Shown in pieces: positions 3,925 through 54,197 of a stretch of 64,000 nt of DNA; position 1 is the stretch's first letter, and the number at the start of each line of letters is the position of its first letter. The translations under genes and the position numbers were made by a program. Source of the stretch: a bacterium (GTDB lineage: Bacteria; Patescibacteriota; Patescibacteriia; Magasanikbacterales; GWA2-37-8); contig JBDRCM010000006.1 in the NCBI GenBank assembly GCA_043821725.1, forward strand, positions 38,287-102,286. The letters are read 5' to 3'. The notes beneath the pieces are model-generated. The model did no database searches. It was given only the letters and a program-made list of their open reading frames with translations, and was not told where the DNA came from.

Positions 3925-4036
3925 TTAATTTTATTCCCAAACAAATCCTCCTTGGCACCCAAAATGAAACGCTAGCTCGCAGACATTATGCCTTTTGACC
4001 TGATACTCTGTGCTCTTGGCACAGGGAGGGGTTCAT
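3925..4036 (-). repeat. copy A (internally deleted) of the non-TIR structured repeat family ATGAACCCCTCC...TAATAAAA
   Basis: The reverse complement reads ATGAACCCCTCCCTGTGCCAAGAGCACAGAGTATCAGGTCAAAAGGCATAATGTCTGCGAGCTAGCG..TTTCATTTT. This is ~90% identical over about 60 nt to the copy at 50271. Confidence 0.6.
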
Positions 4037-4475
4037 TTAATAAAGATTTAATAATCATATAATTGAATTAAATCTCTAATTCCAATAAAAAATATATGTC
4101 AGAGATCAGAATACCGGGAAATTTTGATACGGAAAAGTCACAATACGCAGGTCAAGACCCTGAATATAAAAATAATAGTGTCATGCGGACAACTGACAAC
4201 AAAACGGTGTCATACAATATTTAAAAGATAAAGGCCTTTATGTTGTAATGGACGTGGATGAACCTGGCGTAAAAAGTTGTGCGTATAAAATTCATCCGGA
4301 TAAACTTATAAAAATGGAAGGAAAAAAATAAATCTTTTGAATTAAAAATTTTTTAATAAATATCATTAAGTCGCAAGACCTGCTCTTCCGGCCGTGTCAT
4401 AATGTTAGCCCATCAACTAAAAACATTTAACAAAAAACATTCCGCTGTAAAACGGAATGTTTTGGTTTGTTTCAA

Positions 4476-5378
4476 TTATTCCACTGTTATTACCTGGCCG
4501 TATGTAGTAGTCGGAGGTGCGGTTATAGTTTCAAGTGAAGCATTTCCAAATGCATTAACACCATTTTGAGGAATATAAGTGTATATGACAGCGGGAATTA
4601 GTTGGGCATTAATATCAGAAAAAACTCCAAGTGTGAGAGTATGCCCTTGCGGAATTAAATAATTAAGATTATTAAAAATAACTTCATTATGAAGAGGAAA
4701 CATTGTATGACCGATCTGTGTGCCGGTATTTTCATCTTTCAACATTAAAAAGCTAGTCTTGCTATAATCATTTATATTAATTTGTATGGAAGATATAATT
4801 ACATTTTCAATTGGTGCAGCAGTTAATTCATATTTCCCTATTAATACATTGGATGTTGGCGTAATATAATGTGCGCCATTAAATGAAGTGTCTTTTTTTA
4901 CATATAGCTCTCCTTTACTTACCACCGTGCCAGAAATATACCTGTTATATACTTCAGCATCGCTTAGGGCTTTGTTGTAAATCAATACCTCATCAATGGC
5001 ACCCATAAAGTGATAATTAATGCCATGCTTACCAATGGTAAGAGGCAAATCATTATCTTTAATAAGTCCACTGTGCGCTTTAGTTGCCTTTAACTGACCA
5101 TTGGCATATATCTTTATGAAAGCGCCATCATAAGTCATTACAATATGATTCCAAACATTTGCACTTACTGAAGATTTTGCATTTATAGTTGCTCTTGTGT
5201 TGCTTGCGTTTATTATGCCTCCGCGCAAAATTCCGCTTTTGGTAATAGTAAGCTCATAAGCCAAATTTTTTGACACAATTACTTGATATTCGGATAATGG
5301 TGATGTTGATGCCATTGGCTTAACCCATGCCTCAACTGAAACGGCATTTATCGGGCTCAAGCTGACTGAATCTTGCAC
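4476..5378 (-). CDS. second LamG/concanavalin-A-like domain, C-terminal half of the same frameshifted gene
   Basis: 300 aa. Upstream in the same frame, after a TAA, the sequence reads KNNQAAHFDGVDDFISVQDSVSLSP...VEAWVKP...WNHIVMTYDG...GAIDEVLIYNKALSDAEV. The LamG domain therefore starts before the annotated start and joins the upstream ORF at the T7 run at 5422..5428. Confidence 0.65.
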   Translation of the reverse strand: MQDSVSLSPINAVSVEAWVKPMASTSPLSEYQVIVSKNLAYELTITKSGILRGGIINASNTRATINAKSSVSANVWNHIVMTYDGAFIKIYANGQLKATKAHSGLIKDNDLPLTIGKHGINYHFMGAIDEVLIYNKALSDAEVYNRYISGTVVSKGELYVKKDTSFNGAHYITPTSNVLIGKYELTAAPIENVIISSIQININDYSKTSFLMLKDENTGTQIGHTMFPLHNEVIFNNLNYLIPQGHTLTLGVFSDINAQLIPAVIYTYIPQNGVNAFGNASLETITAPPTTTYGQVITVE

Positions 5379-6277
5379 GCTGATAAAATCATCAACCCCA
5401 TCAAAATGAGCTGCTTGATTATTTTTTTACCAATATAATATGGCGCAGCACATTGTCCTATTGCGCAACTGCCATGATTTCCATTAAAAGAAAGATCTTT
5501 ATAACTCACAGTGCTTGAAGCCATATCAAGTGGCATATATAGCAAACGATCCCCCAAATTTGCACGGTAATATGATTCAATTTCTTGAGCGCTTAAAGCT
5601 TTATTGCGAATTCTTAATTCATCAATTGAGCCATGATAATAATAACTGTTTGAAACCTGGCCAATTGTTAAAGGAAAACTATTTGTTCTGATATTGCCAT
5701 TTTGTGATTTGCTCACTGCCAATGCACCATTTACATACCCTTTAACATTAGTTCCATCATAAGTAAGCGCAATATGATTCCAAGCGCCTTTTTTTACAAT
5801 TCCAGGATTTGAATTTGTAACAACGCGAACATTCTGACTATTGATAATCCCAACGCGCAATCTACCGTCCACACTGATTGATAATTCATAATTATACTGT
5901 TTTGTCGCTATAACTTCATAATAATGATTATTGTTTGTTGAAACAGGGTAAATCCATGCTTCCACTGTTATTGCTTGCGTTGGATTTAAACTTGCACTAT
6001 TTGATACTGAAGCATAATCATCATTTCCATCAAAATAACGAGCCATGCCAAATCTTCCTAAAAATATATTAGGACAATTTGTTCCAGCACACGTTGCGTT
6101 ATTTCCACTAGGTGAAGCGTCAAAAAATGTTGTTGCCGAACTTGGCTCGTCAAAAAGCAATTCCATAATTACATCAGCAGGCGGAGCCGCATTTACTGTT
6201 GCTGTATTTATAGGAAACAAAACCGATAACGTTGCAACTTGCAACACTGCCATGATTGATATGAATAATTTTTTCAT
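5357..6277 (-). CDS. secreted LamG/concanavalin-A-like lectin domain protein, N-terminal half with signal peptide; frameshifted from the downstream half
   Basis: 306 aa with signal peptide MKKLFISIMAVLQVATLSVLF. The LamG_3-type motifs are YFDGNDDYASV...ITVEAWIYP...WNHIALTYDG...GSIDELRIRNKALSAQEI. The last ~20 aa after YYIGKK are out-of-frame read-through. Confidence 0.65.
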   Translation of the reverse strand: MKKLFISIMAVLQVATLSVLFPINTATVNAAPPADVIMELLFDEPSSATTFFDASPSGNNATCAGTNCPNIFLGRFGMARYFDGNDDYASVSNSASLNPTQAITVEAWIYPVSTNNNHYYEVIATKQYNYELSISVDGRLRVGIINSQNVRVVTNSNPGIVKKGAWNHIALTYDGTNVKGYVNGALAVSKSQNGNIRTNSFPLTIGQVSNSYYYHGSIDELRIRNKALSAQEIESYYRANLGDRLLYMPLDMASSTVSYKDLSFNGNHGSCAIGQCAAPYYIGKKIIKQLILMGLMILSACKIQSA

Positions 6278-6433
6278 ATTCGTTATTTAATGAATGAATA
6301 AAAATATATTGGTAGTAAAGCACAGATGAGAATAGAGGTCAATATACCAACGCGCCTTAATATTAAAAAATAATAGATGCAAATAATCGCAAACAGTCGA
6401 AAATTTTAGTATTCAATAGTTGTCACTTTAAAA

Positions 6434-6595
6434 GGGTCCGTCACCAAATACCATTTCTACTGTAATTAATAAATTATGGCCAAAATCGTTTCAAAATTTC
6501 TCGGCTTATCTTACAGATAGGGCTCAAAATTTGTTCAACAATTTTGTCTCATAATTTATCAATTTCGCTACGAAAGCGCATTTGGCGACAGACCC
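6434..6595 (+). mobile_element. Tn3-like MITE copy 1 (162 bp) with 5-bp TSD TAAAA
   Basis: TIR GGGTCCGTCACCAAAT ... ATTTGGCGACAGACCC. TAAAA is present at 6429..6433 and 6596..6600. Confidence 0.75.
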
Positions 6596-6639
6596 TAAAA
6601 AGAAAAAACGCTTGAATTATTGCGTTTTTTCGTATTTTT

Positions 6640-6960
6640 TTGAAAAAAAATGATGAGGGCCCCCTGTATTAGAGATGATATAGGGAGCCAACATCTTCCC
6701 TATACAGGGGGTATTTTATTTTCTGCCAGCACAGCGCATCCTAGTAGAGTAGTCCTGCGCGTTTTCCGGTGGGACGAGCCGTTATTTCACAGACGTCTTC
6801 CAAGCTCTGCACGCCAGAAGAGCTGTAAAACCACCACGGTGCACCTTGACTCTCCTTCCTGTTGTCAGGACTTCTTCTCGGGGTACTTTCTCTTCCTCCT
6901 CGACTTCCTGTTTTTTTGTATTTCTTTGCCACTGTCTGAGCTCCCTTTTTTCCGATTGAG
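6640..6960. other. GC-rich ~320-bp segment between two MITE copies; candidate structured RNA or gene remnant
   Basis: Local GC is clearly above surrounding DNA. A long imperfect hairpin sits at 6657..6710 (CCCCCTGTAT...ATACAGGGGG). Only low-complexity, unconvincing ORFs are present (6650..7006 +, 6741..6932 -). Confidence 0.25.
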
Positions 6961-6967
6961 GTTAACA

Positions 6968-7202
6968 GGATCTGTCACCAAATACCATTTCTACTGCAAT
7001 TCATAAATTATAGCCAAAATCGTTTCAAAATTTCTTGGCTTATCTTACAGATAGGCCTCAAAATTTTTTATCAAGCGAAGCGAGAGAAAAGAAAAATGAT
7101 AATTTTTCTTTTCCGAGCGAGCGAAGATAACTATGGAATTATCAACGATTTTGTCTCATAATATATTAATTTCGTTGCGAAAGCGCATTTGGCGACAGAC
7201 CC
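6968..7202 (+). mobile_element. Tn3-like MITE copy 2 (235 bp) with perfect 5-bp TSD TAACA
   Basis: TIR GGATCTGTCACCAAAT ... ATTTGGCGACAGACCC. TAACA is present at 6963..6967 and 7203..7207. Its internal sequence is shared with the copies at 19827 and 47110. Confidence 0.8.
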
Positions 7203-7383
7203 TAACAGGATTTATAATATTTTACACTTAAAACACTAAAATGTCAACAGTAATAAACCCGACATTGCAACAAGCCACCCCACATTTATGCTTGCACACC
7301 AGGCAAAAATATGCTAAAATATACTCATTCATAAACTTGTCAGATCCAAATATTTATTCATTTTTAGCAAAAAATTTACTTAT

Positions 7384-12924: not shown

Positions 12925-12939
12925 AGCAAATAATTAAGA

Positions 12940-14256
12940 TTATTCGGCTTTTGCGCCCTTGTCAGTGGTGTTAGTGGTGTCAGTGGTGTTAGTGGTGTTA
13001 GTGGTGTCAGTGGTGTTAGTGGTGTCAGTGGTGTTAGTGGTGTTAGTGGTGTCCGGGCTTTCTGCGCCACTGCCAACGTCAACATTTTCATCTTCTTTCT
13101 TGTCATCCAGCTTTTCCCCTGTCTTATCGTTGGTTGGTTTTTCCTGCTTTATTTGTGGCTTCTTTGCTGTTATGTCCGGAAGCTTTAAACCAAGACGATG
13201 CTCGGGTGGCTCCAAAGAAACCACTTCAAACTCTCTTAAATCACCTATGTTAAATTCGTTCTTTATGCTTTCATTACCATTGGACACTTCTGAAATATGA
13301 GCAAGCCCATGAATTTCTTCGTCAAGAGCAACCATCAGCCCGAAGGGTTCTATTTTTATTATTTTTCCCTGAACTTTATCTCCGACTTTATATTTATCTT
13401 TAACTTTTTTCCATGGATCATCAACCAGTCGCTTGATTGACAAATATATTTTTGATTTGTCAAGCTGAATTATTTGCGCTTCTATATTGTCACCGACTTT
13501 CAAAACATCTCTTGGGTGGTCAATGCGCTTCCATGCAATTTCAGAAATATGAACAAGTCCTTCCAGTCCGACTCCGAACTTCACAAACGCTCCGAATGAA
13601 GTAAGAGCGCTGACTTCTCCCTCAATCTTGTTGCCGATTTTGTACGATTCAAGCACTGCTTTTTGCGAATCTTCCCAAACCGCCTTTTCTGAAACTATTA
13701 ATTTTTCCTCATTTTGATTGGCATCTATAATTTTAACTTCCAGGTCATTATTGATTAGTTCCTGTAATTTTTCCAAAATTCTAAGCTTATCGCCACCTGC
13801 CACTCGCGGATAATTGTCCGGCGACAGCTGGCTAACCGGCATAAATCCGGTTAAAGCATCAACCTGCATGATTAAACCGCCTTTGTTAGCTGCCACCACT
13901 CGTGATTTAACGGCTATGCCTTCATTCATGTATTTTTTCATATTTTCCCAAGCCCGTTTATAGCCGGCACTTCTAAAAGAAAGCTCCATCTCGCCATTTT
14001 CGTTTTCCAATTCCAAAACAGTGGCTTCAACTTTGTCGCCCACTTTTATTTCTGAATATTCCTTTGATTCTGTAAACAATTCACGACCGCGCACAACGCC
14101 GACCGTTAACCCTCTGATGTCCAATTTTATTGACCCCTTGTCAATTGAGATTACTTCGCACTCAACCACTTCATTAACTTTTGGAATGTCAACCTGATAT
14201 GACTCCAATAATGTTTGAAAGCTTGGCTGGTTGCTTGTTGGTACGTTTACATTCAT
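12940..14256 (-). CDS. rpsA: 30S ribosomal protein S1 (4 S1 domains) with a C-terminal (TTN/TTD)n low-complexity tail
   Basis: S1-domain motifs EGEVSALTSFGAFVKF and GLAHISEVS are present. The C-terminus reads ...SPDTTNTTNTTDTTNTTDTTNTTNTTDTTNTTDKGAKAE. Confidence 0.8.
   Translation of the reverse strand: MNVNVPTSNQPSFQTLLESYQVDIPKVNEVVECEVISIDKGSIKLDIRGLTVGVVRGRELFTESKEYSEIKVGDKVEATVLELENENGEMELSFRSAGYKRAWENMKKYMNEGIAVKSRVVAANKGGLIMQVDALTGFMPVSQLSPDNYPRVAGGDKLRILEKLQELINNDLEVKIIDANQNEEKLIVSEKAVWEDSQKAVLESYKIGNKIEGEVSALTSFGAFVKFGVGLEGLVHISEIAWKRIDHPRDVLKVGDNIEAQIIQLDKSKIYLSIKRLVDDPWKKVKDKYKVGDKVQGKIIKIEPFGLMVALDEEIHGLAHISEVSNGNESIKNEFNIGDLREFEVVSLEPPEHRLGLKLPDITAKKPQIKQEKPTNDKTGEKLDDKKEDENVDVGSGAESPDTTNTTNTTDTTNTTDTTNTTNTTDTTNTTDKGAKAE
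12961..13053. repeat. 9-bp tandem repeat (AGTGGTGTY x ~10) encoding the S1 TTN/TTD tail
   Basis: A direct tandem array is visible in the sequence, in-frame with rpsA. Confidence 0.85.
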
Positions 14257-14505
14257 AAATTTATTTATCTTCCATCTTTGCCTTCACTTTCGGAAATATG
14301 ACAGTAGCCAAATAGCCGTAGGAGGCAATGATTGATAACAAAAAAAGATGTTCTTATCCCCTTGTCCTGCAACCAATGGGTTGAAAGACAAACGGGTGTT
14401 TTTCACTATGGTGGAAAAACTTGTTTTTTAATTGTTTGTATTATATTATATATATTACCACATGTCAATAGAGCGCAATTAAAATATTTTCTTACGCTAA
14501 ATATG

Positions 14506-14806
14506 AACTCATGTAGAGTTATTCAACATAATGCGCTATTACTAACGAAATGACAAATGTTAAAAAATGTCTGTCATTCTGAATCCCGACCTAGTCGGGA
14601 CTTATCCCGACCTAGTCGGGACTTATCCCGACCTAGTCGGGATGAAGAATCCCTTAAATAATTCACTTGAATTAATTTGAATGACCAGAGGGATCCTTCG
14701 CGGAGTTTATCCTCGAGCGTAGCGAAGGGCTCAGGATGACAGGTGAAGGAATCAGGATGACAGGTGACACGCTCAAGATGACATAGTGGTAAACTCTGTA
14801 TGAGTT
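14506..14806 (+). mobile_element. MITE family 2, copy L (~300 bp) with TIR AACTCATGTAGAGTT / AACTCTGTATGAGTT
   Basis: The terminal inverted repeats are visible. Internally there are 3 tandem 21-bp units CCCGACCTAGTCGGGACTTAT (14585..14641) and repeated TCAGGATGACAG motifs. It is an inverted near-copy of the element at 17039..17264. Confidence 0.7.
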
Positions 14807-14830
14807 CTATAACTAAAAAATACATCTTTT

Positions 14831-16180
14831 ATGAAATATTTTTTACTACGATTTCTACCAGCACTGTGTTTTGTATTGATTATAGGCGGGTGTAATACGA
14901 ATAGAAATACAGTCATTATAAAACCACCTGCAAGCGCAGTATCTAACACAAACGCAAATCCAACAGCCAATGTAAACATAACTGTTGTTGCCAAATCCAC
15001 TACCTTAAATTCAACAACAACTCCAATTGCAAAAACAATTGATAAATATGATCTTTGGTCAAAAGGCGTTAAACTGCGTGGCGCCAACATCTATCAAAGG
15101 CGGGTCTATCCGGATTTAGACGGCAACTCATTCGGTCCGGGTTTGGTTGGCCCTGTTTATACTCAAAAAGATTTTGATGGTTTATCCGCTTTAGGTGCCA
15201 ACTGGGTGCAAATTGAACATCCCGGCCTATATTCTGAAAAACCACCTTATAGATTAGATGGCGAAGTGCAAATCAATCTTGATAATCTCATTAGCATGGC
15301 TTCAAAAGCAAATATGTTTGTTACAATCGCTTTTCGAACAGGCCCGGGCAGATCTGAATTCACTTTTTATGATGAGGATGATGACGATTGGTTTGATGAC
15401 AGTTATAGAAATGACAAAGTATGGAAGGATGAAACCGCCCAGCAGGCATGGGCTGACATGTGGGAGTATACAGCTGAAAGATACAAAAACAATCCAATAG
15501 TTGTTGGCTATAATCTTATGGTTGAACCGAACGGCGAGTCCAGAGCGTTTTCAGAAGAGCTATGGGAGCCAGATGAATTTTATCCAAAATACAAAAATTC
15601 CATGGCTGATTGGAATCAAATGTATCCAAAGTTGGTTTCTGCAATCAGAAAAAACGACAAGAATACGCCGATTTTAGTCGGACATATGGCTTACAATTCC
15701 GTAAATTGGCTTCCATACTTAAATGATGTAAACGGCTCAAAAATAGTTTGGATAGCGCACCAATATGAACCATACGCATATACGCATGACGCGCAATCCA
15801 ATACAAAATACCCGTCAACATTTAAATGGTATGGAGAAAAAATTATTTTAGATAAGAACTATTTGAAAACGATTTACGATCTGGCGAAAAATACAGCAAC
15901 TAAAAATAGCAGACCGCTCGCAATTGATGAATTTGGTGTTTACAGATTTAAAGAAGGCGCTTCCCAATTTCTTGAAGATAGCATGAATCTTATGGAAGAG
16001 CGCGGTACCAATTATTGCATATGGTCATGGGATTCGGCGCAAAGGGCTAAAAACTTTCCTGAAGACGATCAATTTGATTTTACAAGAGGCGCCAACAAAA
16101 AAAATCATGAACCGGTTCAAAATCCGTTGCTGGATGTTGTAAAAAAATACTGGCAAAAAAATTCTGCCAGGCCTTTTTAA
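14831..16180 (+). CDS. glycoside hydrolase family 5 (cellulase-like) lipoprotein
   Basis: A lipoprotein signal (LIIGGC) is present. GH5 features are GANWVQIEHPG, a catalytic acid context GYNLMVEPNGE (NEP), and a nucleophile context IDEFGV. Confidence 0.6.
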   Translation: MKYFLLRFLPALCFVLIIGGCNTNRNTVIIKPPASAVSNTNANPTANVNITVVAKSTTLNSTTTPIAKTIDKYDLWSKGVKLRGANIYQRRVYPDLDGNSFGPGLVGPVYTQKDFDGLSALGANWVQIEHPGLYSEKPPYRLDGEVQINLDNLISMASKANMFVTIAFRTGPGRSEFTFYDEDDDDWFDDSYRNDKVWKDETAQQAWADMWEYTAERYKNNPIVVGYNLMVEPNGESRAFSEELWEPDEFYPKYKNSMADWNQMYPKLVSAIRKNDKNTPILVGHMAYNSVNWLPYLNDVNGSKIVWIAHQYEPYAYTHDAQSNTKYPSTFKWYGEKIILDKNYLKTIYDLAKNTATKNSRPLAIDEFGVYRFKEGASQFLEDSMNLMEERGTNYCIWSWDSAQRAKNFPEDDQFDFTRGANKKNHEPVQNPLLDVVKKYWQKNSARPF

Positions 16181-16202: not shown

Positions 16203-16264
16203 TTTATTAACGCAACGTAGCGAGGATTTTGCTGAGCGGGATCTTGGCACAGGGAGGGGTTCAT
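16203..16264 (-). repeat. copy B (short, ~62 nt) of the ATGAACCCCTCC...GCGTTAATAAAA repeat family
   Basis: The reverse complement reads ATGAACCCCTCCCTGTGCCAAGATCCCGCTCAGCAAAATCCTCGCTACGTTGCGTTAATAAAA. It abuts the TGA stop of the GT2 gene. Confidence 0.6.
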
Positions 16265-17004
16265 AATTCATTTGTGCGAGGAGGCAAATAGTTGGTTTGC
16301 CTTCCAAAACACATCTTGACAAAATTCCAAGCAAGAACTGCCAGTTTTATGTTAAGTTTGAATCTGCGCGATGATACAAAATACCGCAATGAGCAATCAA
16401 CCTTGATTTTACCAAACTCACTTAATCTGCGGGTCAAGTCAGCGTCTTCTCCAAATTTTAAATTCTCATCAAACCCGCGTGTTTTATCATATAATTCTTT
16501 TTTAAAAACCATGCCATTGCCGATTGGGCCCACTTTATTGAATGAAGCTATTTTGGCAAAAAACAATATGGGTCTAAAAAAAACAACGCAAGCCGCGTTC
16601 TTCAAAATAGATCCATCATAAAAATAAAACTGTCCTCCAAGACAGGCAAGATTTTCATCCTCCTCAAATCGCTTAAGCGCCTGTTGTAAAAAATCACAAG
16701 GAAGATTAGTATCAGCGTCTATCTGTACTATGTATTTGCCTTGCGCGACTTCAGCGCCTTTTTTTCTAGCGCTTCCAACGCCTCTTTTATCTTCCTTTAC
16801 CAAACTTGCTCCTTTTGAACGCACTATTTGATTGCTCATGTCTGTTGAGCCGTTGTCAACCGCTATTATGTCATAATTAAAATCGCCTTGCTGATTTTTC
16901 GCGTGTTCAAGACAAGATCCAATATATTTCTCTTCATTATATAGAGGCACGACTATGCTGAACAATATCTCATCATTTAAATTATTGTGAGCGTTAATTT
17001 TCAT
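16261..17004 (-). CDS. family 2 glycosyltransferase
   Basis: FSIVVPLYNEEKYIGSCLEHAKNQ...DIIAVDNGSTD and the DxD context QIDADT are typical of a GT-A fold GT2. Confidence 0.7.
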   Translation of the reverse strand: MKINAHNNLNDEILFSIVVPLYNEEKYIGSCLEHAKNQQGDFNYDIIAVDNGSTDMSNQIVRSKGASLVKEDKRGVGSARKKGAEVAQGKYIVQIDADTNLPCDFLQQALKRFEEDENLACLGGQFYFYDGSILKNAACVVFFRPILFFAKIASFNKVGPIGNGMVFKKELYDKTRGFDENLKFGEDADLTRRLSEFGKIKVDCSLRYFVSSRRFKLNIKLAVLAWNFVKMCFGRQTNYLPPRTNEL

Positions 17005-17038
17005 AAATTGAACTGAATTTTTTGTAAACCTATAATTT

Positions 17039-17264
17039 AACTCATACAGAGTTTAGCACTATGTCATTCTGAACCCTTCGCTCGCTCGAGGATAAACTCC
17101 GCGAAGAATCCCTTAGATAACGCGAGAGGGCGCGGAGTTTACCCTTGAAGGAAGTGAAGGACTCCCTCAGGATGACAGGACAGATACTCAGGATGACAGA
17201 CATTTTTTAACATTTATCATTTCGCTAGTAATAGCGCACTATGTTGAATAACTCTATATGAGTT
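17039..17264 (-). mobile_element. MITE family 2, copy R (~226 bp), inverted relative to copy L
   Basis: TIR AACTCATACAGAGTT / AACTCTATATGAGTT. Its arms are reverse complements of both arms of the copy at 14506..14806, e.g. ATGTCTGTCAT(C/T)CTGA and CTTCGCGGAGTTTATCCTCGAGCG. Confidence 0.7.
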
Positions 17265-17416
17265 GGTTTACTATTGCCTTAGCAGTTTGATATTTCTTTT
17301 GCTTTTTAATATTTTATCACGACATCTCTATTATGATAAGGCCTTGAACAAATGGCCAAACTAAAAAACAAAAATACCTGTCTTCCTGACAGGTCTCATA
17401 CCATCTAAATACAAAA

Positions 17417-19810: not shown

Positions 19811-19826
19811 ATTATTTTGCTAATAA

Positions 19827-20089: not shown

Positions 20090-20090
20090 A

Positions 20091-31603: not shown

Positions 31604-31623
31604 ATTTGAAATTCGCACTATAA

Positions 31624-31677: not shown

Positions 31678-31680
31678 TAT

Positions 31681-31733
31681 AAAACAAAAACTAGGAACAA
31701 TGACGCTATTAACAATAGTGGCGTTGTTCCTAG
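31681..31733 (-). terminator. intrinsic terminator downstream of rpsJ (minus strand)
   Basis: The minus strand reads CTAGGAACAA-(21 nt loop)-TTGTTCCTAG followed by TTTTTGTTTT. Confidence 0.6.
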
Positions 31734-38963: not shown

Positions 38964-41564
38964 ATGACCCCAACAATCAAAAAAATAACTTTTTTAAGTT
39001 CGCTTGTGATGGTTTTAATTACAGCGCTTATACTTGCAAAATATCTTCCGGCAAGTCCGGCTATTTCAGCGGACAGTTCTTGCCCCGCTCTCAATCTGGG
39101 TGACTTAATAAAAGTAAACGGTGACAGCAAAACAGTATATACTCTCAATCCCAACAACGAACTAGTGTACTTTCCAAATATAAATGTATTAAGAACTTGG
39201 GAATATAGCCCGACAAATTATGTAACAATAGGCGCGGACTGCTTGGAATCGTTTCCCGTGCCAACCGGCCAATCAGCAGTTATACAACGCGCAGGTACAT
39301 ATATTGTCAAACGCCAATACGGCAATGAACTTCGCGCTGTTCTTCCAGGCGGAATTCTATCAACAATAACACCTGAAGCGGCGCGCGTTCTTTATGGAAA
39401 CAAAAAAGGTGAATATGTTGTGCTTGCAATCAATCACTATATATGGCCAAACTACCTAACCACCGGACAACCAATCAACGCGCTGGAAGAAAGTGATGTG
39501 CGGTTGCATCCGGGAATGTTGGCTTATGTAAAAGGAAGATCATATTATGTTGATACAAGCAATGTATTGCATGAAATAACTGCTGAAGGGATAAGAGCTA
39601 ATAACTTTCAAACTCGTTTTAGACGCGGATTTTTAGAAAATGTCATAAAAGATATGACAATGGGCAGTAAAATAAACAGAGCCCTTCCTCATTTGCTTGA
39701 TATGACCCAGCGCACAACTGAAAATTATGATCTAACTCCGCCAATGCCAACTCTAACGGGAGCGGCATCAACAAATACAGTACGCGTAAACTGGAAGGCT
39801 TACGCCGGATCCGGCTTTAAAAAATATTATATTGTCAGATCTGAAACAAACACAAATCCAAAATATCCGACTGACGCTGTAATTTCCTCATCAACGCGCA
39901 TTAACTTTATTAATTATACTGACTTGAATCTGCCTGATGACTTCACATACCATTACAACTTATGCGTTGAGCAAGCAAGCAATGTTATTGTGTGCTCAGA
40001 ACCAATTACAGTTTCTCAAAGTCCTATAATACCGCCACCAACAACAAATGGAACGGTTTACTATATCCGAACGGATGGTGGTAATGCCAGCCAATGTGAT
40101 GGTTTGGAAAACACTGCATACCCGGGCACAGGCACCAACCAAAACTGCGCTTGGAAGCATCCGTTTGTAGCGCTTCCACCGGAAGGCACAGCGCGAATTT
40201 CAGGCGGGGATACTTTAATGATAGCAAACGGATCTTACAAAATGGGATATGGCGCCTCTGCAGGAGATGAAGGATGTGCAAGCGCATATTCTTATGACTG
40301 CATTATGGCTCCAATACCGTCCGGACCTGATGCCAGCCACAAGACCCTTATTCTTGGAGAAAACTGGAACACAGGATGTTCAAGCAAGCCACAGCTTTGG
40401 GGTTCAGGCAGGCCTTGGGCAATTCTTGATATGAATAATAAAAGCAACATTGAATTGCAGTGTTTGGAAATAACAGACAGGTCATCTTGCGTTGAATTCC
40501 ACAGCGGAGGTAACTCATGCAATAGAGACAGCGCGCCTTTTGGCGACTGGGCATCAACCGGATTGCGCGCTTCCGGTTCAAGCAATGTGCTGTTAAAGAA
40601 TTTGGATATTCATGGACTGGCGCACACAGGGATTTATGCCGGCCGACTAACCAACTGGACAATTGAAGATACAAAAATTCAAGGCAATGGCTGGGTTGGA
40701 TGGGACGGAGATGTTGACGGCAATGATTCAAACAGCGGAACAACCACTTTCAAACGCGTTAATATTGATTGGAATGGATGCGGAGAAACATACCCGGGAA
40801 GACTGCCAACCGGTTGCTGGGGACAAAGCGCCGGCGGATATGGAGACGGACTTGGAACAGGAGCCACAGCAGGCAACTGGCTAATTGAGGACTCAACATT
40901 TTTGCACAATACTTCTGATGGGCTTGATCTGCTATACCACAGAGGCGGAGGCAAAATTACCATCAGGCGCGTCCATGCTGAAGGCAATGCAGGCAACCAA
41001 ATTAAAACAAATGGCAATGCTGAAATAACAGACAGCGTAATAGTTGGCAATTGCGGATATTTTCAAGGAAAATCATTTACCCATAATGTTGATGCTTGCA
41101 GGGCGCTTGGAAATGCCATGTCAGTAAATATGGAGGGATCTACCAGCCCAATACTAATCTACAACAATTCAATTTACAGTGAAGGCGATTGCGCCTTAAT
41201 AAGCGAAGGCGGATCAAACACAATTACATCAAGAAATAATATATATTATGCGGGCACTGATTATTGGCAACCGTTTGAAAAATCCTGCTTATTCTATACC
41301 GGCGCTAACGCAAGATTTGATACTGACTATGATATTGCGTTTCAAACCAAAGACAGCAATAATTATTGTGCACTAGGAAGCCATAATCTTTGCAATACAG
41401 ATCCAAAATTCGCTTCAATTGAGCCAACATCATTTGATTTGCGCTTAAAGGATTCCAGCCCAGGAATCAATAGAGGAACAACGCCTATCACAACAATTGA
41501 TTTTATGGGCGACAACAGGACAAAAGGAAGTACAACTGACATTGGCGCGTATGAAATGAAATAG
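38964..41564 (+). CDS. paralogous large secreted beta-helix protein (N-terminal domain, FN3-like insert, C-terminal beta-helix ending DIGAYE)
   Basis: The C-terminal ~480 aa are roughly 75-80% identical to the upstream paralogue and include a 135-bp stretch of 100% DNA identity (40117..40251 = 37486..37620). An FN3-like segment (VRVNWKAYAGSGFKKYYIVRSE) replaces the S/T/G linker. Confidence 0.55.
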   Translation: MTPTIKKITFLSSLVMVLITALILAKYLPASPAISADSSCPALNLGDLIKVNGDSKTVYTLNPNNELVYFPNINVLRTWEYSPTNYVTIGADCLESFPVPTGQSAVIQRAGTYIVKRQYGNELRAVLPGGILSTITPEAARVLYGNKKGEYVVLAINHYIWPNYLTTGQPINALEESDVRLHPGMLAYVKGRSYYVDTSNVLHEITAEGIRANNFQTRFRRGFLENVIKDMTMGSKINRALPHLLDMTQRTTENYDLTPPMPTLTGAASTNTVRVNWKAYAGSGFKKYYIVRSETNTNPKYPTDAVISSSTRINFINYTDLNLPDDFTYHYNLCVEQASNVIVCSEPITVSQSPIIPPPTTNGTVYYIRTDGGNASQCDGLENTAYPGTGTNQNCAWKHPFVALPPEGTARISGGDTLMIANGSYKMGYGASAGDEGCASAYSYDCIMAPIPSGPDASHKTLILGENWNTGCSSKPQLWGSGRPWAILDMNNKSNIELQCLEITDRSSCVEFHSGGNSCNRDSAPFGDWASTGLRASGSSNVLLKNLDIHGLAHTGIYAGRLTNWTIEDTKIQGNGWVGWDGDVDGNDSNSGTTTFKRVNIDWNGCGETYPGRLPTGCWGQSAGGYGDGLGTGATAGNWLIEDSTFLHNTSDGLDLLYHRGGGKITIRRVHAEGNAGNQIKTNGNAEITDSVIVGNCGYFQGKSFTHNVDACRALGNAMSVNMEGSTSPILIYNNSIYSEGDCALISEGGSNTITSRNNIYYAGTDYWQPFEKSCLFYTGANARFDTDYDIAFQTKDSNNYCALGSHNLCNTDPKFASIEPTSFDLRLKDSSPGINRGTTPITTIDFMGDNRTKGSTTDIGAYEMK

Positions 41565-45182: not shown

Positions 45183-45866
45183 ATGGACAATATAGAATTA
45201 GACAAGTTGGTTTCTGAATTGCAAATATCAAAAGATCAAATATTGCGTGAGGAAGCAGAAATGTTATTTTTAGATCAGCTTGGAAAAAATAGAATATCTT
45301 CAAAACTGGTTTTTTATGGTGGAACTGCTTTGCGGTTAGCATATAATTCCCCCCGTTTCTCTGAAGACATAGATTTACTAATGATTGGCAATGTATCACT
45401 ATCAGAGCTTAAAATTTTTTTGAACACAATTCTTAAAAAGAACGATAATTGGAAGTTGATTGATATAAAGAACAAGCGCCAGATATTATTTGCCTTGATA
45501 AATATCAAAGATGAAAAATTAAAACATAATTTTTCAATTAAGATAGAGATTCATAAACCCAAGAAAAAAATAGATGTTGAATATAATTTGGCCTCAATCC
45601 AGAGCCCAACAAGTATAGCTCAACCCCTGTTATTAGTACCGAGCATAGAAGCAATGAAAGAATTAAAAATAGCAACAATTAAAGACAAAAAAAAAGCGCG
45701 AGATATATTTGATTTATGGTTCATCTTCCAAAAAATGCGAGAACCCTTTGTTATAGGGCAAAAAGTTAAATACAAAGAAAATGAGTTTAAAAATGAATTA
45801 CAAGTTTTTTTACCCAAAAAATATTATCCGCTAGTAAAACAATTGTATGAACAAGTTAGTGAGTAG
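45183..45866 (+). CDS. abiEii: AbiEii/AbiGii-family nucleotidyltransferase toxin (DUF1814)
   Basis: LVFYGGTALRLAYNSPRFSEDIDLLMIGN is the hallmark AbiEii motif. 227 aa. Confidence 0.7.
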   Translation: MDNIELDKLVSELQISKDQILREEAEMLFLDQLGKNRISSKLVFYGGTALRLAYNSPRFSEDIDLLMIGNVSLSELKIFLNTILKKNDNWKLIDIKNKRQILFALINIKDEKLKHNFSIKIEIHKPKKKIDVEYNLASIQSPTSIAQPLLLVPSIEAMKELKIATIKDKKKARDIFDLWFIFQKMREPFVIGQKVKYKENEFKNELQVFLPKKYYPLVKQLYEQVSE

Positions 45867-46938: not shown

Positions 46939-47109
46939 CACCTCCCCCCGGAGTCGAACACATCGACTGCCCCGTAGCAACCCCGGTCTTTCCGACTGCC
47001 GACAAGGGTTGCTTCATTTTTTATAATCCGCGTTTGCGCTTTGCGCGATAATGCCGTATCATAATATACAACATTTGATATTGAATCTGATGACATAAAT
47101 ATCTAATAC

Positions 47110-47344
47110 GGGTCTGTCGCCAAATGTGCTTTCGTAGCGAAATTGATAAATTATGAGACAAAATTGTTGATAATTCCATAGTTATCTTCGCTCGCTCGGA
47201 AAAGAAAAATTATCATTTTTCTTCTCTCTCGCTTCGCTTGATAAAAAATTTTGAGGCCTATCTGTAAGATAAGCCAAGAAATTTTGAAACGATTTTGGCC
47301 ATAATTTATTAATTGCAGTAGAAATGGTATTTGGTGGCAGACCC
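47110..47344 (-). mobile_element. Tn3-like MITE copy 5 (235 bp, reverse orientation) with perfect 5-bp TSD AATAC
   Basis: GGGTCTGTCGCCAAATGTGCTTTCG ... AGTAGAAATGGTATTTGGTGGCAGACCC. AATAC is present at 47105..47109 and 47345..47349. Confidence 0.8.
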
Positions 47345-47399
47345 AATACGCACATCATCAGCCATAAGTCCACATTAAATTAATTGCTAACCCACTAAT

Positions 47400-49729: not shown

Positions 49730-50270
49730 ATTTGTTATATATACAATAGTATATACCTCTTCAAAATTATAGTCAAGCTTATGCTAAGCTATCATATATC
49801 TTAATTCAATCAATTACTCACTTTAACCGACTTTACATGTCCCAATAGTTAATGATATTGTTACTATCTATTAAAATCGCGCTATAAATTAGTGCATAAT
49901 TCGTCTTGGAGGTTAGATGTCAACGACAACTAACAGCGTAAAAATCGAAAATCTGAGGATATGTATCAATATAGTTCCGGTCACGAGTTTGATCGAACTG
50001 TATAAAGATGGTAAAATCTCAGAACTGAAACTGGAGTTTGAAAGAGACTCAGCCGGCAACATCATTTATACAGATAGCTTTATGGCAGACTACTGCGACA
50101 TTCTCGCCGGTTTCGGCATACAGGGGCTGATTTAAATCTGATTTTTGCATTGCTCAAAGTCCAGGCCCTCCATGCTCGTGCGTTGTTAACGGCTCAAACA
50201 CGGATGGGCAACATTATCCACTCTATTGAGGAGTGTTTTTTTATCACAATTATAGCTAATGGGGATGCGA

Positions 50271-50424
50271 ATGAACCCCTCCCTGTGCCAAGAGCACAGG
50301 GTATCAGGTCAAAAGGCATAATGTCTGCGACTCTACGCCGTGGCAAGACCACGGGGTACTTTACCTGCGCTCGCTCGGAAATGAAAACAAGTTTTCATTT
50401 CTCTCACTTCGCTTGGTAATAAAA
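50271..50424 (+). repeat. copy C (~154 nt) of the ATGAACCCCTCC...TAATAAAA structured repeat family
   Basis: ATGAACCCCTCC, then hairpin CTGTGCCAAGAGCACAG, then GGTATCAGG..., then hairpin CCGTGGCAAGACCACGG, then hairpin GGAAATGAAAACAAGTTTTCATTTC, then CTTCGCTTGGTAATAAAAAG. Confidence 0.65.
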
Positions 50425-50615
50425 AGATAATCTTGCCTAAATTTATTTTTATGATATACTTATGCTAATTTAACTTGTCCCATTGGTATCCTTTTGGGAC
50501 TTGTTCAGTAATAGAAAACTATACCTTTGACTATTCTCTACGTGCCCATCATGAGGGGCAAGCCACTGCTATGCCTTAATAACTCTGCTTCAATTTTAAA
50601 AACCCAATCAAATTT

Positions 50616-51083
50616 ATGAAGACAATCCTATTCATCGGCAGATTTCAACCTTTTCACATAGGTCATTTGTCAGTATTAAAAAAGATTGACAAGCGAAATG
50701 ATGTAAAAAAAATTATAATAGGAATTGGAAGCGCTCAATATAGCAATACGCAAAAAAATCCATACAGTTTTGAACAAAGAAAAAAGATGATTGTAAACGT
50801 TTGTAAATCCAAAATAAAAAAGTCGATTACGGTTATTCCTTTAGATGATTTTAACAATAACGCGAAATGGGTTAAAAACGTTGAAAAAATGGCTAAAATC
50901 TTCAATGAGGCCTACTCAGGAAATGATTTAGTGACAAAACTACTGTCCGAACGGGGATATTTGATCAATAAAATAGACAAATCAATTGACATTAGCGCGA
51001 CAAAAATCAGAGAAATGATTAAAAAAGGAGATATTCAATGGAAAAAATACATTCCCTATTCTGATGCTGAAATCTATAATTAA
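50616..51083 (+). CDS. nicotinamide-nucleotide adenylyltransferase-like cytidylyltransferase (archaeal NadM type)
   Basis: ILFIGRFQPFHIGHLSVLKKI matches the (H/T)xGH nucleotidyltransferase motif of NMNAT. Confidence 0.55.
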   Translation: MKTILFIGRFQPFHIGHLSVLKKIDKRNDVKKIIIGIGSAQYSNTQKNPYSFEQRKKMIVNVCKSKIKKSITVIPLDDFNNNAKWVKNVEKMAKIFNEAYSGNDLVTKLLSERGYLINKIDKSIDISATKIREMIKKGDIQWKKYIPYSDAEIYN

Positions 51084-51100
51084 TGCCTGCCATGGCCTAT

Positions 51101-51171
51101 GGGCCTATGGTCTAATGGTACGACGCCACACTCGCATTGTGGAAATAGGAGTTCGATTCTCCTTAGGTCCA
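51101..51171 (+). tRNA. tRNA-Ala (anticodon CGC) with the G3:U70 identity pair
   Basis: The acceptor stem GGGCCTA pairs with TAGGTCC, with G3 pairing T. The anticodon stem CCACA/TGTGG carries loop CTCGCAT, giving CGC. The T-arm is AGGAG-TTCGATT-CTCCT. Confidence 0.7.
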
Positions 51172-51239
51172 CGGGCGATGGCAGGCAAAAATGAATTTAC
51201 TCGCAATCAACCTCCGAAAATTTAAAAATCTTTAAAATA

Positions 51240-51560
51240 ATCGTAAAATCCTTAAAAAAACAGGCCAAGTTCCGATAAAACGCAGATTCCCCCGAAAAGA
51301 GAACTCTTTCTTTGCTAAAAACAGATAGTTCCGATAAAAGGAAATAATGCGTTTGTATACACTATCCTGTACAAAAAATACTTATTTAAGTATTTTTTTG
51401 ATTTTTTGGTATATTTTGTTAATTTTCTGTGGATAAAGTTGTGCATAAAGTGTTGAATCTGGGGATAATTTGTATAGGATAGCGTATACAAATTAAGATT
51501 TTTTGAAATTTTGCGTTTTTTTGGTCTTTTTTTTGTATAGGATACTCTATACATTTAGAA
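51240..51560. promoter_or_regulatory. AT-rich non-coding region with three copies of a 24-bp palindromic motif and a 13-bp direct repeat (operator/iteron-like)
   Basis: TTTGTATAGGATAGCGTATACAAA at 51471..51494. Variants occur at 51352..51375 (TTTGTATACACTATCCTGTACAAA) and 51532..51555. AGTTCCGATAAAA is repeated at 51258 and 51328. Confidence 0.4.
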
Positions 51561-51763
51561 CCATATTTTTTATCAATATTTTTCAAAATCGTCGTTCCCT
51601 GTGAAACCGGTATATATTTTATGTAAAAATTGATTATCAACAAAAAAACCGCCAAATGTAAATCATGGCGATTTTTTTATTCTCACTGCGCACCATATTT
51701 TGATGCGAAGAATTGAATCCCAACTTGTCCGGACGGACTTAACCTGCTGTTGGGGGAGCAGTA

Positions 51764-52237
51764 CTATTTATAATGAGCCGTAGAAGGTGGATCAACGATG
51801 GTGAGATACCCTTCTAGCCATGTACCCTCCAACTCTTTGGTCAGTAATCTAGCGAATTTTTTAACCAAGATATGGTCAAAATAGCCGAAGCTACCACTGG
51901 CGCCATAGAAACGGATGGTTCCACAGACATGGTTCACCGATATTACTCCACCACCGAAGATGTGGAGATCGCCTCCATGTTCTTGGAGGTAGTACTTGGC
52001 TATATCACTATGATAGGATCCGTCGCCTCCACTGATGAGAGTGTATTCATTGTTATGAGAGCCAACAATGAATTTAACACCATATTTATCGGCCATGACG
52101 TGTTCAATTTCGCTCATGGCATCTTCGACTTCTCCTTTCACAATCCGCTGTTCTATATCTTCCCAATCTTCTCCGATTAATTCTTCCCATTCTGCAAGTT
52201 TATCTTTATTGGTCAACCAGTCGATCACAATCTTCAT
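51764..52237 (-). CDS. hypothetical protein
   Basis: 157 aa (MKIVIDWLTNKDKLAEWEELIGEDWEDIEQR...). It is flanked by a MITE and a family-3 repeat. Confidence 0.4.
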   Translation of the reverse strand: MKIVIDWLTNKDKLAEWEELIGEDWEDIEQRIVKGEVEDAMSEIEHVMADKYGVKFIVGSHNNEYTLISGGDGSYHSDIAKYYLQEHGGDLHIFGGGVISVNHVCGTIRFYGASGSFGYFDHILVKKFARLLTKELEGTWLEGYLTIVDPPSTAHYK

Positions 52238-52281
52238 TTAACCCTCCTGTGCAATACAAGTATTTGTATATTTGCCTGTAT

Positions 52282-52361
52282 GGGCCTGTCGCCAAATACC
52301 ATTTCTACTACAATTGATAAATTATGAATTTCGTCACGAAAGCGCATTTGGCGACAGACCC
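52282..52361 (+). mobile_element. Tn3-like MITE copy 6 (80 bp) with perfect 5-bp TSD TGTAT
   Basis: GGGCCTGTCGCCAAATACCATTTCTACTACAATTGATAAATTATGAATTTCGTCACGAAAGCGCATTTGGCGACAGACCC. TGTAT is present at 52277..52281 and 52362..52366. Confidence 0.8.
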
Positions 52362-52548
52362 TGTATGCTCAAGGATTGAAAGTCTATAAGCATAGCAAGG
52401 AAATAATATTAGTAAGCGGATAAATTGTAAATACTAATCACATTATTTATATATTAATTTAGCTATAATATAATAAAAAATAAATAAAATATACAAAATG
52501 TAAGTAATCCTTGACACAAATTTCAAAATATGCTAAATTACATTCATA

Positions 52549-52715
52549 ATGAACCCCTCCCTGTTTCAAGACCTGCCTGCCCGTAGGCAGTGCATCAGAC
52601 ACAGCAGTTTGGTAGTCCGCCCCGATAGACATCGGGGGACATTTAACTTGCTTGCCGGCAGGCAAGATCGCTCGATCCCGCTAAGCGGAATCCTCGCTAC
52701 GATGCGTTAATAAAA
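52549..52715 (+). repeat. copy D (~167 nt) of the ATGAACCCCTCC...GCGTTAATAAAA structured repeat family, ending 5 nt before the trmB-like ATG
   Basis: ATGAACCCCTCC, then hairpin CTGCCTGCCCGTAGGCAG, then CACAGCAGTTTGGTAGTCCGC, then hairpin CCCCGATAGACATCGGGGG, then ATTTAACTTGCTTGCC, then hairpin GGCAGGCAAGATCGCTCGATCCCGCTAAGCGG, then CTCGCTACGATGCGTTAATAAAA. Confidence 0.65.
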
Positions 52716-52720
52716 CAACT

Positions 52721-53507
52721 ATGCAAAATTCAATAATCAAAAACCTAGGATTAGATGACAATCAAGCAAAAGTATACGAGGCCTTGTTAGGTTTGGGAGC
52801 TTCCACAGTTAGCCAAATTACAAAAAAAGCCGGAATCACCCGTACTTTTGGCTATGAAATACTGGAAAAATTAAGCGTTCAGGGTTTGGTTAATCGTGCA
52901 TCAAGCAAAGGCAAAAAAATCAAATATGTGGCTGAACATCCGCGCAGATTTGTGCAATATATAAAAAATAATAAAAACCAATGGGAAAGGCGCCTAAAAG
53001 AAGCAGAAAATAAATTGCCGGATTTAATCTCTTTGTTTAATGTTGCTGATAAGCCGATCGTTAAGTACCAAGAAGGTATTGAGGGAATTAAAAGTATATT
53101 TTGTCAAACGCTTGAATCTAAAGAAGAAATTTTATCAATACTTGATATTGAAGGATGGGATGTTCCGGAGTTTAGGCAATGGGGCAAAAAATATAATCGT
53201 GAAAGAAGCCAAAAAAAAAATAAAAGAAAGAATACTTATGCTTGATACTCCGCAAGGCAGAGAATGGATGAAAAATTACAAAGGATCTTACAAATATACG
53301 CAATATCGCTGGATTAAACCGGAAGAAATACCAGGAATTAAGAACTTTGGCGGTGAAATCAATATTTATCAGAATAAAGTAGTTATGGCTTTGTTGAAAA
53401 AGCCGAACTTAATGGGAGCTATAATTGAAAGCTCAGCGCTGTCCAATATTTTAAAGGGGCTGTTTGAATTGGCTTGGAAACAAGGGATTGAGACAAAGAA
53501 AAAATGA
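52721..53507 (+). pseudogene. TrmB-family transcriptional regulator, split by a frameshift (N-terminal HTH ORF 52721..53245, C-terminal domain ORF 53040..53507)
   Basis: The N-terminus LGLDDNQAKVYEALLGLGASTVSQITKKAGITRTFGYEILEKLSVQGLV is a TrmB HTH. The C-terminal domain continues in another frame (GAKNIIVKEAKKKIKERILMLDTPQ...). The overlap contains A6 (53186..53191) and A10 (53211..53220) homopolymers. Confidence 0.6.
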
Positions 53508-53646
53508 TGAAGTGGTTTTTAAAAGCAAATTATTTTTCGAAACAGATTTGCACTTCGTTTTAGATTAAAATAATTTTATATTTTTTTTTATTTTTATTTT
53601 ATCTTCAGTATGTTATGATTGATACACAAATAATAAATACTTTTAA

Positions 53647-53982
53647 ATGCACACTCCTAATTCTGGTAAAATGGTGAGGATTTACAGTTTAGACGTTATT
53701 ATTTCAGTTGGATATATGGTTAATTCTAAATGTGCCACTCATTTCAGAATTTGGGTCACTAGTATTCTTAAAAAATATCTAATAGATGGGTATGCAATAA
53801 ATGAAAAAAGATTATTTGGATTGACAAAACTGTCAAAATATTATAAAATGCAAGTCAATATGAATAATATATTAAATACAATTAATTTAGTAACCACCAA
53901 AGTAAAAGCTTGCATAATGTTTGGCAGCTTTTTTGGCTTCAAAAACACTGTACAAGGGAGCTTTGGGTCTAATTCCTGTTAA
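53647..53982 (+). pseudogene. truncated RhuM-family (virulence-protein-like) gene fragment
   Basis: IYSLDVIISVGYMVNSKCATHFRIWVTSILKKYLIDGYAINEKRL matches the conserved N-terminal core of RhuM-family proteins (DVIISVGYRVNS...). Full-length members are about 330 aa; this ORF is 111 aa with a non-homologous tail. Confidence 0.5.
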
Positions 53983-54010
53983 TTTGTAATAAAAATAACA
54001 AAAAATAACA

Positions 54011-54039
54011 AACTCCCAAAGCTCAAATGGGAGTTTTTT
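54011..54039 (+). terminator. intrinsic terminator after the RhuM fragment
   Basis: ACTCCCA-AAGCTCAAA-TGGGAGT followed by TTTTTT. Confidence 0.6.
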
Positions 54040-54050
54040 AATTATCAATC

Positions 54051-54197
54051 AATGAACCCCTCGCCGACTCAGTCGGGGTAATCAGGCACAGCAGTTTGGA
54101 AGACCGCTGTGGCAAAACCACAGAGGATTTAACTTGCTTGCTCGGTAATGAAAATAAATTTTCATTACCCTCCTACGCTGCGTCAACAAAAAATAAT
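54051..54197 (+). repeat. copy E (~147 nt) of the structured repeat family, ending at the ABC-F ATG
   Basis: ATGAACCCCTCG, then hairpin CCGACTCAGTCGG, then GGTAATCAGGCACAGCAGTTTGGAAGACCGC, then hairpin TGTGGCAAAACCACA, then GAGGATTTAACTTGCTTGC, then hairpin TCGGTAATGAAAATAAATTTTCATTACCC, then TCCTACGCTGCGTCAACAAAAAATAAT. Confidence 0.65.

Follow-up and report, generated by a model that had tools for sequence, protein, structure and literature searches.

The question raised by the 64,000-nucleotide (nt) window analysed here (NCBI GenBank assembly GCA_043821725.1, contig JBDRCM010000006.1, positions 38,287 to 102,286; a bacterium of the Magasanikbacterales, Patescibacteriota) is what a family of five hairpin-rich repeats represents, a structured RNA or a piece of mobile DNA. 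The repeats are very likely palindrome-associated transposable elements (PATEs), gene-less elements of the IS200/IS605 type that are probably moved in trans, as single-stranded DNA (ssDNA), by the transposase TnpA. Their covarying hairpins are most likely DNA handles gripped by that single-strand transposase. This reading was one of those offered in the original prediction, which was made from the letters of the window alone, and it is supported by a Y1 transposase gene with the same ends and by three structural traits: conserved tips, hairpins in subterminal position and no terminal inverted repeats.

Repeat copies in the window

The five copies form a real repeat family. The 11-mer ATGAACCCCTC occurs exactly five times in the window, as exact matches at 4036-4026 (-), 16264-16254 (-), 50271-50281 (+), 52549-52559 (+) and 54052-54062 (+). 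The mean count in shuffled sequences was 0.71, and none of 100 shuffles reached five. The copies, here called A to E in order of position, lie where they had been predicted, apart from the start of copy E, which was corrected from 54051 to 54052. A covariance model, which had been proposed as a check, was used for the conserved end (model R1); it recovered the five copies and no others in the window.

Pairwise kinship among the copies is a mosaic. Copies A and C are 98% identical across 60 nt and copies B and D are 90% identical across 42 nt, copy B being the conserved end joined to the other end of a D-type copy. The conserved blocks described earlier, CACAGCAGTTTGG.AG.CCGC (95%) and ATTTAACTTGCTTGC (100%), are both common to copies D and E. 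Full copies fold far better than shuffles (z = -4.4, -2.8 and -4.3), and their stems do differ between copies yet stay self-complementary, as had been noticed. A small conserved open reading frame (ORF) starting from the ATG of ATGAAC was considered and ruled out; the frames end at different places (53 aa in copy D, 9 aa in copy E), in agreement with the earlier remark that the embedded ATG frames are not conserved.

Relatives and element anatomy

Relatives were collected by scanning a degenerate pattern of the conserved end with ATCAG against a set with a single genome for each species, which returned 15 matches, and a second pattern against metagenomes, which returned 30. Seven of the genome matches are true copies, located in four Patescibacteria/Saccharibacteria bins (JAHIVO01, JBAZZL01, JBBTUM01 and CAYHQI01), and three of these are near-identical within one Saccharibacteria bin. 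About 28 of the metagenome matches are true copies, mostly from groundwater samples. With more than 30 relatives, spread over the four bins and about 20 groundwater metagenome contigs, the family is widespread. The remainder (L001-4, L006, L007, L009, L013, L025 and L030; 8 of 15 genome and 2 of 30 metagenome matches) were left out as chance matches in coding sequence of unrelated phyla. Three scans of viral contigs gave no match.

Every copy was reverse-complemented so that its right tip read GAGGGGTTCAT, and all true relatives share one layout with the window elements. This orientation, which is taken here as the transposon top strand, is the reverse of that used in the original prediction. 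In order along the top strand are a flanking TTTAT, the first element base (T), 10-17 nt, a 4-nt guide (AATA or a variant), the left-end hairpin, a variable hairpin-rich interior, TGATA, the right-end hairpin (loop usually CTTG) and the terminal AGGGGTTCAT. A CC foot comes after both guides (AATA or similar on the left, TGATA on the right), and GG precedes AGGGGTTCAT, beyond which lies a T flank. Elements are 60-300 nt long overall, with short forms of 68 nt (L012) and 95 nt (L041).

Of 29 distinct sites, 24 have TTTAT as the 5-mer just outside the left end; TTCAT is found in two, and TTTAA, TTTTT and TTTGT in one each. The base before this 5-mer is not conserved. TTCAT occurs at every right tip. 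A guide and hairpin lie near both ends, in the same orientation and on one strand, in copies C and E, in L008, L010, L022, L041 and L045, and in others, and the right-end model R1 also matches the left-end hairpins of copies C and E. The hairpin spacing in the PATEs is 10 nt on the right and 14-19 nt on the left, longer where a fold-out hairpin is present. The reported lack of terminal inverted repeats was confirmed and, with the conserved tips and subterminal hairpins, fits the IS200/IS605 family.

The predicted 3' end proved to be conserved, but its terminal ATAAA(A) is best read as a flanking target motif that lies outside the element, because TTTAT recurs outside left ends. This TTTAT is often the tail of the rho-independent terminator of a neighbouring gene (L010, L012, L017, L023, L026, L042 and others), so copies sit just beyond gene ends.

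A transposase gene between the same ends

The search for a Y1-transposase gene carrying the same termini, suggested with the original prediction, was positive in one metagenome locus that was recovered as L032, L020 and L046. In L032, the predicted 5' end and first hairpin come directly after a gene on the opposite strand. That gene is an intact 165-aa ORF for a Y1 HUH transposase, with a Pfam Y1_Tnp (PF01797) match at 2.4e-34 and 122 bits (cut-off 55) to the NCBIfam IS200/IS605 transposase equivalog NF033573; the associated transposases score 122-126 bits on this equivalog. The model for the repetitive extragenic palindrome (REP)-associated tyrosine transposase (RAYT) gave no match for the L032 protein and 26 bits (cut-off 80) for its relative P0039. 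P0039, a homologue with 68% identity to the L032 transposase, matches in sequence the TnpA proteins of the ISDra2 and IS608 structures.

Read in the direction of the gene, the left side of L032 consists of a flank ending in ...GGGGATTTTAT (flanking motif TTTAT), the element start TCTCTCTTAGGGTTCAATACC, the hairpin CCGCAGCTCTGCTGCGG and then the ATG of tnpA. The right side consists of CCCTGATACC, the hairpin CCGTAGCTCTGCTGCGG and GGAGGGGTTCAT, after which the flank begins with TGG, and is the same as a PATE right end. The two subterminal hairpins are nearly identical and in the same orientation. Judged by its sequence, the locus is a complete IS200-type insertion sequence (IS). On the left, 19 nt separate its TTTAT from the conserved CC foot of the hairpin; on the right, 10 nt separate the hairpin foot from the tip. 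The spacings in IS608 are likewise 19 nt and 10 nt (PMC3201880). All autonomous relatives found belong to the IS200 group (about 0.55-0.7 kb) and have tnpA but no tnpB.

By analogy with IS608, a TnpA of the Y1 HUH type encoded elsewhere would bind the two subterminal hairpins on ssDNA. The guide tetranucleotide 5' of each hairpin foot would pair with a cleavage motif (TTAT in the left flank, TCAT in the right tip), and the enzyme would excise the top strand as a circle and paste it 3' of another TTTAT, with no inverted repeats and no target duplication. Cleavage at the stated sites, movement of the elements in trans and activity in the present genome are all inferred from this analogy.

Covariation of hairpins and possible covariation of guides

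In an alignment of 20 distinct sequences of the right-end hairpin, 96.1% of cells are paired, compared with 77.3% in shuffles. Double-change cells number 29, against 9.3 +/- 2.4 in shuffles, and none of 500 shuffles reached that value. Compensatory changes are present in five of the eight pairs, and controls in which the pairing was slid pair in only 41-58%. The covariation foreseen in the original prediction is therefore strong when more copies are aligned. Compensatory changes are also present in an AT-rich hairpin found in copies C and E, in L035 and L042, and in fragments within miniature inverted-repeat transposable elements (MITEs). We propose that the hairpins covary because TnpA reads them largely as structure.

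In IS608, the tetranucleotide just 5' of each hairpin foot recognises the cleavage motif by base pairing (PMC3201880), and covariation of guide and cleavage motif is a known rule in PATE-containing families (PMC10055086; PMC3201880). Three guide and motif pairs were found here. AATA with TTAT occurs at left ends of PATEs and in the L032 IS; GATA with TCAT occurs at every right end and at the left end of L024, where the flank is TTCAT; and TATT with TTAA occurs in the related transposase-bearing IS of P0039. The sister copies of L024 (L038 and L041) have GAATACC with TTTAT. In a position-wise comparison, the last two bases are complementary in all three pairs. It is suggestive that guide and cleavage motif change together, with few independent changes and with exceptions in L034 and copies D and E.

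Evidence for mobility and insertion history

Nine different flanks (L010, L011, L014, L017, L021, L023, L027, L031 and L039) contain the same element of about 165 nt, whose copies share more than 95% identity. The P0039 IS has at least five different left flanks. In L022, a PATE (275-625) is inserted in a RAYT-like Y1 transposase pseudogene with frameshifts, and the frame continues across the reconstructed junction. L037 is a truncated PATE. The PATE of L040 (about 420-895) is interrupted by a DDE-type IS, which we take, by eye, to have a DUF772-like N-terminus.

Two related Saccharibacteria loci, L010 (1288-1460) and L017 (380-550), carry the same PATE with the same right flank (the end of ruvC) and wholly different left flanks. 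A synteny break exactly at the element is as expected from recombination between copies.

The left end of a C-type PATE was also found as a fragment at 7072..7123 (+) and at 47189..47240 (+) of the window, inside two copies (6957-7220 and 47103-47345) of a MITE with terminal inverted repeats. These MITEs belong to a second, unrelated family of the classical kind, located at 6423-6607, 6957-7220, 19809-20097, 31613-31685, 47103-47345 and 52271-52369. Its terminal inverted repeats begin GGGTCTGTCGCCAAAT, and 5-bp target duplications are visible for 47103-47345 (AATAC) and 6957-7220 (TGTTA). The PATE left-end sequence within these two copies amounts to roughly 75 nt.

State of the individual copies

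Copy C (50271..50418, minus) is the most intact and the sole window copy that looks competent. Its tip (50271-50280), right-end hairpin (50281-50301) and guide GATA (50302-50305) score 63.1 bits with R1, and its left end comprises a hairpin at 50338-50356, also matched by R1 (50336-50356), and the guide AGTA (50357-50360). An extra AT-rich hairpin (50378-50403) loops out because the left-end start (TTACC) pairs with GGTAA. The flanking TTTAT is at 50419..50423 (minus).

Copy A (3935..4036, plus; 59.3 bits with R1) retains an intact right-end module, with guide GATA at 4002-4005, right-end hairpin at 4006-4026 and tip AGGGGTTCAT at 4027-4036. Its left-end hairpin is decayed and half deleted. 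Both boundaries are kept, with TTTAT as the target or transposon-adjacent motif in the left flank (3930..3934, plus), and the copy is not simply truncated. A BrnT/CopG-type toxin-antitoxin pair (3309-3897) adjoins copy A, and an AbiEii-type nucleotidyltransferase toxin gene is located at 45183-45866; both are typical accessory-region content.

Copy B (16208..16264, plus) is an internally deleted PATE, in which a D-type left end is joined to the 3' half of the right-end hairpin and the tip; most of the interior and half of the right-end hairpin are gone. The TTTAT of its left flank (16203..16207, plus) is 33 nt downstream of a terminator-like hairpin (16150-16170). The tip provides the last base and the TGA stop of a GT2 (glycosyltransferase) gene (16261-17004, minus). 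In the reconstructed empty site, as read from the sequence, this gene would have the same C-terminus (...NEL) with a TAA stop, which is as expected from precise insertion after TTTAT. A third repeat family of 270-340 bp is represented nearby by two inverted copies, at 14490-14830 (+) and 17020-17290 (-), that have terminal repeats of their own (AACTCATRTAGAGTT); in one of them, the hairpin TCCCGACCTAGTCGGGACTTA is repeated three times in tandem. Between the two lie a cellulase gene, the GT2 gene and copy B, an arrangement reminiscent of a composite or invertible segment.

Copy D (52549..52709, minus) retains the conserved tip (52549-52560) and scores only 17.9 bits with R1. The 5' half of its right-end hairpin is replaced by another hairpin (52573-52590), more hairpins follow at 52620-52637, 52651-52666 and 52678-52688, and the copy is probably immobile. 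The flanking TTTAT is at 52710..52714 (minus). Copies D and E had been predicted to end exactly at start codons, which does not hold for either. In copy D, conservation stops at 52715, short of the trmB-like ATG at 52721; for copy E, the boundary is at 54185/54190 and the start codon of the ABC-F gene is at 54198. The trmB-like gene downstream of copy D (52721-53507) is split by an apparent frameshift into ORFs 52721-53245 and 53040-53507, and the next ORF (53647-53982) is a mere fragment of a RhuM-family gene, which together suggest a decaying accessory region.

Copy E (54052..54185, minus; 39 bits with R1) belongs to a compact two-hairpin subfamily with the relatives L024, L038 and L041. It has the tip CGAGGGGTTCAT, a right-end hairpin at 54064-76, a left-end hairpin at 54107-54124 (R1 match 54107-54123) and an extra AT-rich hairpin at 54144-54169. 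Its left flank holds the variant motif TTTGT (54186..54190, minus). With the hairpins of copies A, B and D damaged and the flank of copy E variant, most window copies are, as far as their anatomy can be read, decayed.

Points against transposition, and a possible role of the interiors

Several observations weigh against the reading of these repeats as PATEs moved by TnpA. No tnpA or tnpB was found among the window ORFs scanned. No empty site was recovered from a sister genome, exact-match look-ups of window proteins (trmB-like, L14) having given no record, and the boundaries rest on the multi-copy alignment plus two reconstructions, each weak by itself: the stop of the GT2 gene at copy B and the reading frame that runs through the L022 junction. 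The guide rule has mismatches: the left end of L034 has TCAT with guide AATA, and the guide of copy E mismatches its flanking TTTGT. Mispairs in the right-end stem, counted on the top strand, are about five G·T to three A·C, a ratio that does not identify the active strand. The stems differ widely even inside one genome, which is unusual if a single TnpA binds all of them. Lastly, the long GC-rich interiors are not explained by the needs of transposition alone.

The interiors of the long copies (L008, L022, L005 and L034) contain a segment that is complementary to both transposon tips. Examples are GGCGA/ATGAAC against ...GTTCAT/TCGCC... and, in L022, GCAGATA...TGAACCCCTCCCC. Between copies L008 and L022, the half of this segment that corresponds to the left tip varies in step with the left-end start. 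The interiors might thus have a nucleic-acid function of their own, either as an ssDNA self-splint that would juxtapose the cleavage sites or as an antisense or guide-like RNA against the junction of the excised circle, with copies D and E maybe co-opted as 5' leaders, Patescibacteria genomes being gene-poor; we consider this unlikely.

Alternative explanations

One alternative is that the repeats are a multi-copy structured non-coding RNA (a small RNA, 5' leader or 3' untranslated region element), their likeness to IS ends being secondary or the elements having been domesticated. The stability of the folds relative to shuffles would agree with such an RNA, as would the CUUG-type loops on the top strand and the fact that covariation includes hairpins beyond the two that a transposase would bind, such as the AT-rich one. 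Transcription is also plausible, in that a sigma-70-like site (52511-52539) would start transcripts right at copy D and many copies have a stop codon on one side and a terminator on the other. Passenger transcription is probable for some copies. However, the regional promoter count is not above that of shuffles (24 vs 17.5 +/- 4.5), and the copies occur in every gene context and orientation, with copy B between convergent genes and its tip over a stop codon, copy D between divergent genes, and others inside mobile elements. As in junk DNA, there are copies that are truncated (L037), internally deleted (B) or split by an IS (L040). A search of Rfam (Rfam 15) gave nothing at gathering score in the window, and only chance-level matches at E <= 10 (50000-54500) and at E <= 1 (ten related loci). 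The conserved parts are exactly the end features of IS200/IS605 elements, and in L032 a transposase gene lies between such ends. The small-RNA or 5'-leader reading of the original prediction is accordingly not supported as the primary one, the covariation being what transposase-bound DNA hairpins would show, and we judge an RNA family improbable.

A second alternative accepts the repeats as PATEs and holds that they carry the scaffold of an omega RNA for a TnpB or IscB protein encoded elsewhere, with the interior and right end transcribed on into the flank, which would supply the guide. Omega RNAs acting in trans are often encoded by PATEs (PMC10055086), and in the long forms here a stretch of 150-250 nt next to the right end is highly structured. 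L034 also gives, on its top strand, a weak match to the archaeal HgcC RNA (932-1111, minus strand; 23.8 bits, E = 0.087) that ends in a hairpin and then GGAGG..TCA. In spite of these features, a tnpB- or iscB-like ORF is present beside the right end in none of about 35 loci, the autonomous relatives found are the tnpA-only elements described above, and the Rfam searches of 50000-54500 (E <= 10) and of the ten related loci (E <= 1) matched no family. The interior is not conserved between subfamilies (A/C, D/E and the L010 type), and the short forms have no room for a scaffold. An omega RNA is therefore highly improbable. As a separate observation, the 3' end of the HgcC consensus (a hairpin, then GGAGGAGGUCAG) resembles the right end of this PATE family, and HgcC might itself be derived from IS200/IS605.

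It is scarcely credible that the copies are REP or REPIN palindromes kept by a domesticated, single-copy RAYT. The transposase superfamily is the same (Y1 HUH), the copies are GC-rich intergenic hairpins in an AT-rich genome, some homologues bear the Joint Genome Institute (JGI) label "REP element-mobilizing transposase RayT", and fragments of RAYT-like Y1 genes lie near the element in L022 and L036. But the transposases score far higher on the IS200/IS605 equivalog than on the REP-associated model, and elements this long, whose two ends differ and whose boundary motifs are fixed, do not correspond to palindromes of 20-40 nt. The related IS also occurs as multiple copies with different flanks, and the RAYT-like gene of L022 is interrupted by the element, not flanked by it.

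Two further candidates were rejected: a group II intron fragment (a match of the AT-rich hairpin of copy E to the plastid petD domain-5 model, E = 0.07), which has no bulged domain-5 geometry, 5' GUGYG or domain 6; and integron attC sites, suggested by variable palindromes beside cassette-like genes, since the ends are not inverse core sites and there are several separate hairpins instead of one long imperfect palindrome. An argument from replication-strand bias was dropped, since the GC skew is lowest near 34-50 kb yet a Na+/H+ exchanger gene, not dnaA, stands at 34695.

Comparison with known systems

The PATE family described here was compared with three known systems. It resembles IS608 (Helicobacter pylori) and ISDra2 in the absence of terminal inverted repeats, the same-orientation subterminal hairpins, a motif outside the left end and inside the right tip, and 4-nt guides; the L032 IS shares the IS608 spacings as well, and its TnpA relationship is to the solved ISDra2 and IS608 structures. 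It differs in its motifs (TTTAT/TTCAT here, TTAC/TCAA in IS608 and TTGAT in ISDra2), in relatives that carry tnpA without tnpB, and in the lack of any gene in the window copies.

The PATEs of Haloquadratum and those of ISGst in Geobacillus stearothermophilus are likewise gene-less, retain only the IS200/IS605 ends and presumably rely on a TnpA acting in trans, and the flanking motif of ISGst (TTCAT/TTCAC) is similar to the motif here (PMC10055086). The host lineage, in contrast, is Patescibacteria/Saccharibacteria from groundwater, the end sequences are unrelated, and the interiors are modular and variable with extra fold-out hairpins and no detected linkage to TnpB or omega RNA. REP/REPIN systems with RAYT share short GC-rich intergenic hairpins linked to a Y1 HUH enzyme, whereas the elements here have asymmetric ends with boundary motifs, an enzyme of the IS200 type (NCBIfam) and a multi-copy element that encodes that enzyme.

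Other features of the window

The window has about 38% G+C. The ribosomal-protein operon at 22-33 kb has no L30 gene between S5 and L15 (22212-23268), a trait reported for bacteria of the candidate phyla radiation and one that agrees with the Patescibacteria origin to which the relatives of the repeat point. Two tandem paralogues (36326-38929 and 38964-41564) encode proteins of 867 and 866 aa and share repeat blocks of 73-88% DNA identity; the first of these had no Pfam match at E <= 1e-5. A run of 11 tandem copies of a 9-nt unit (GTGGTGTYA-type; 12942-13076) lies in the 5' part of the gene for a four-S1-domain protein (12940-14256, minus).

Implications

A full-text search on Patescibacteria with IS200 or MITE terms gave no description of this family among the matches listed, and the finding adds to the known elements an IS200-group family, with its own PATEs, that had gone undescribed in Patescibacteria and Saccharibacteria. 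GC-rich structured repeats in the AT-rich genomes of candidate phyla can be recognised as mobile DNA, which avoids their mis-annotation as riboswitches or small RNAs. The explicit boundaries, the target motif TTTAT and the guide rule can serve in annotation and in marking where genes are disrupted or synteny is broken. Naturally diverse hairpins and guide and motif pairs also provide a substrate set for studying how far one TnpA tolerates divergent hairpins. If the interiors did prove to have a function, non-autonomous IS200 elements would carry a nucleic-acid role of their own. More generally, the family points to single-strand transposition that may be active or recent in very small symbiont genomes.

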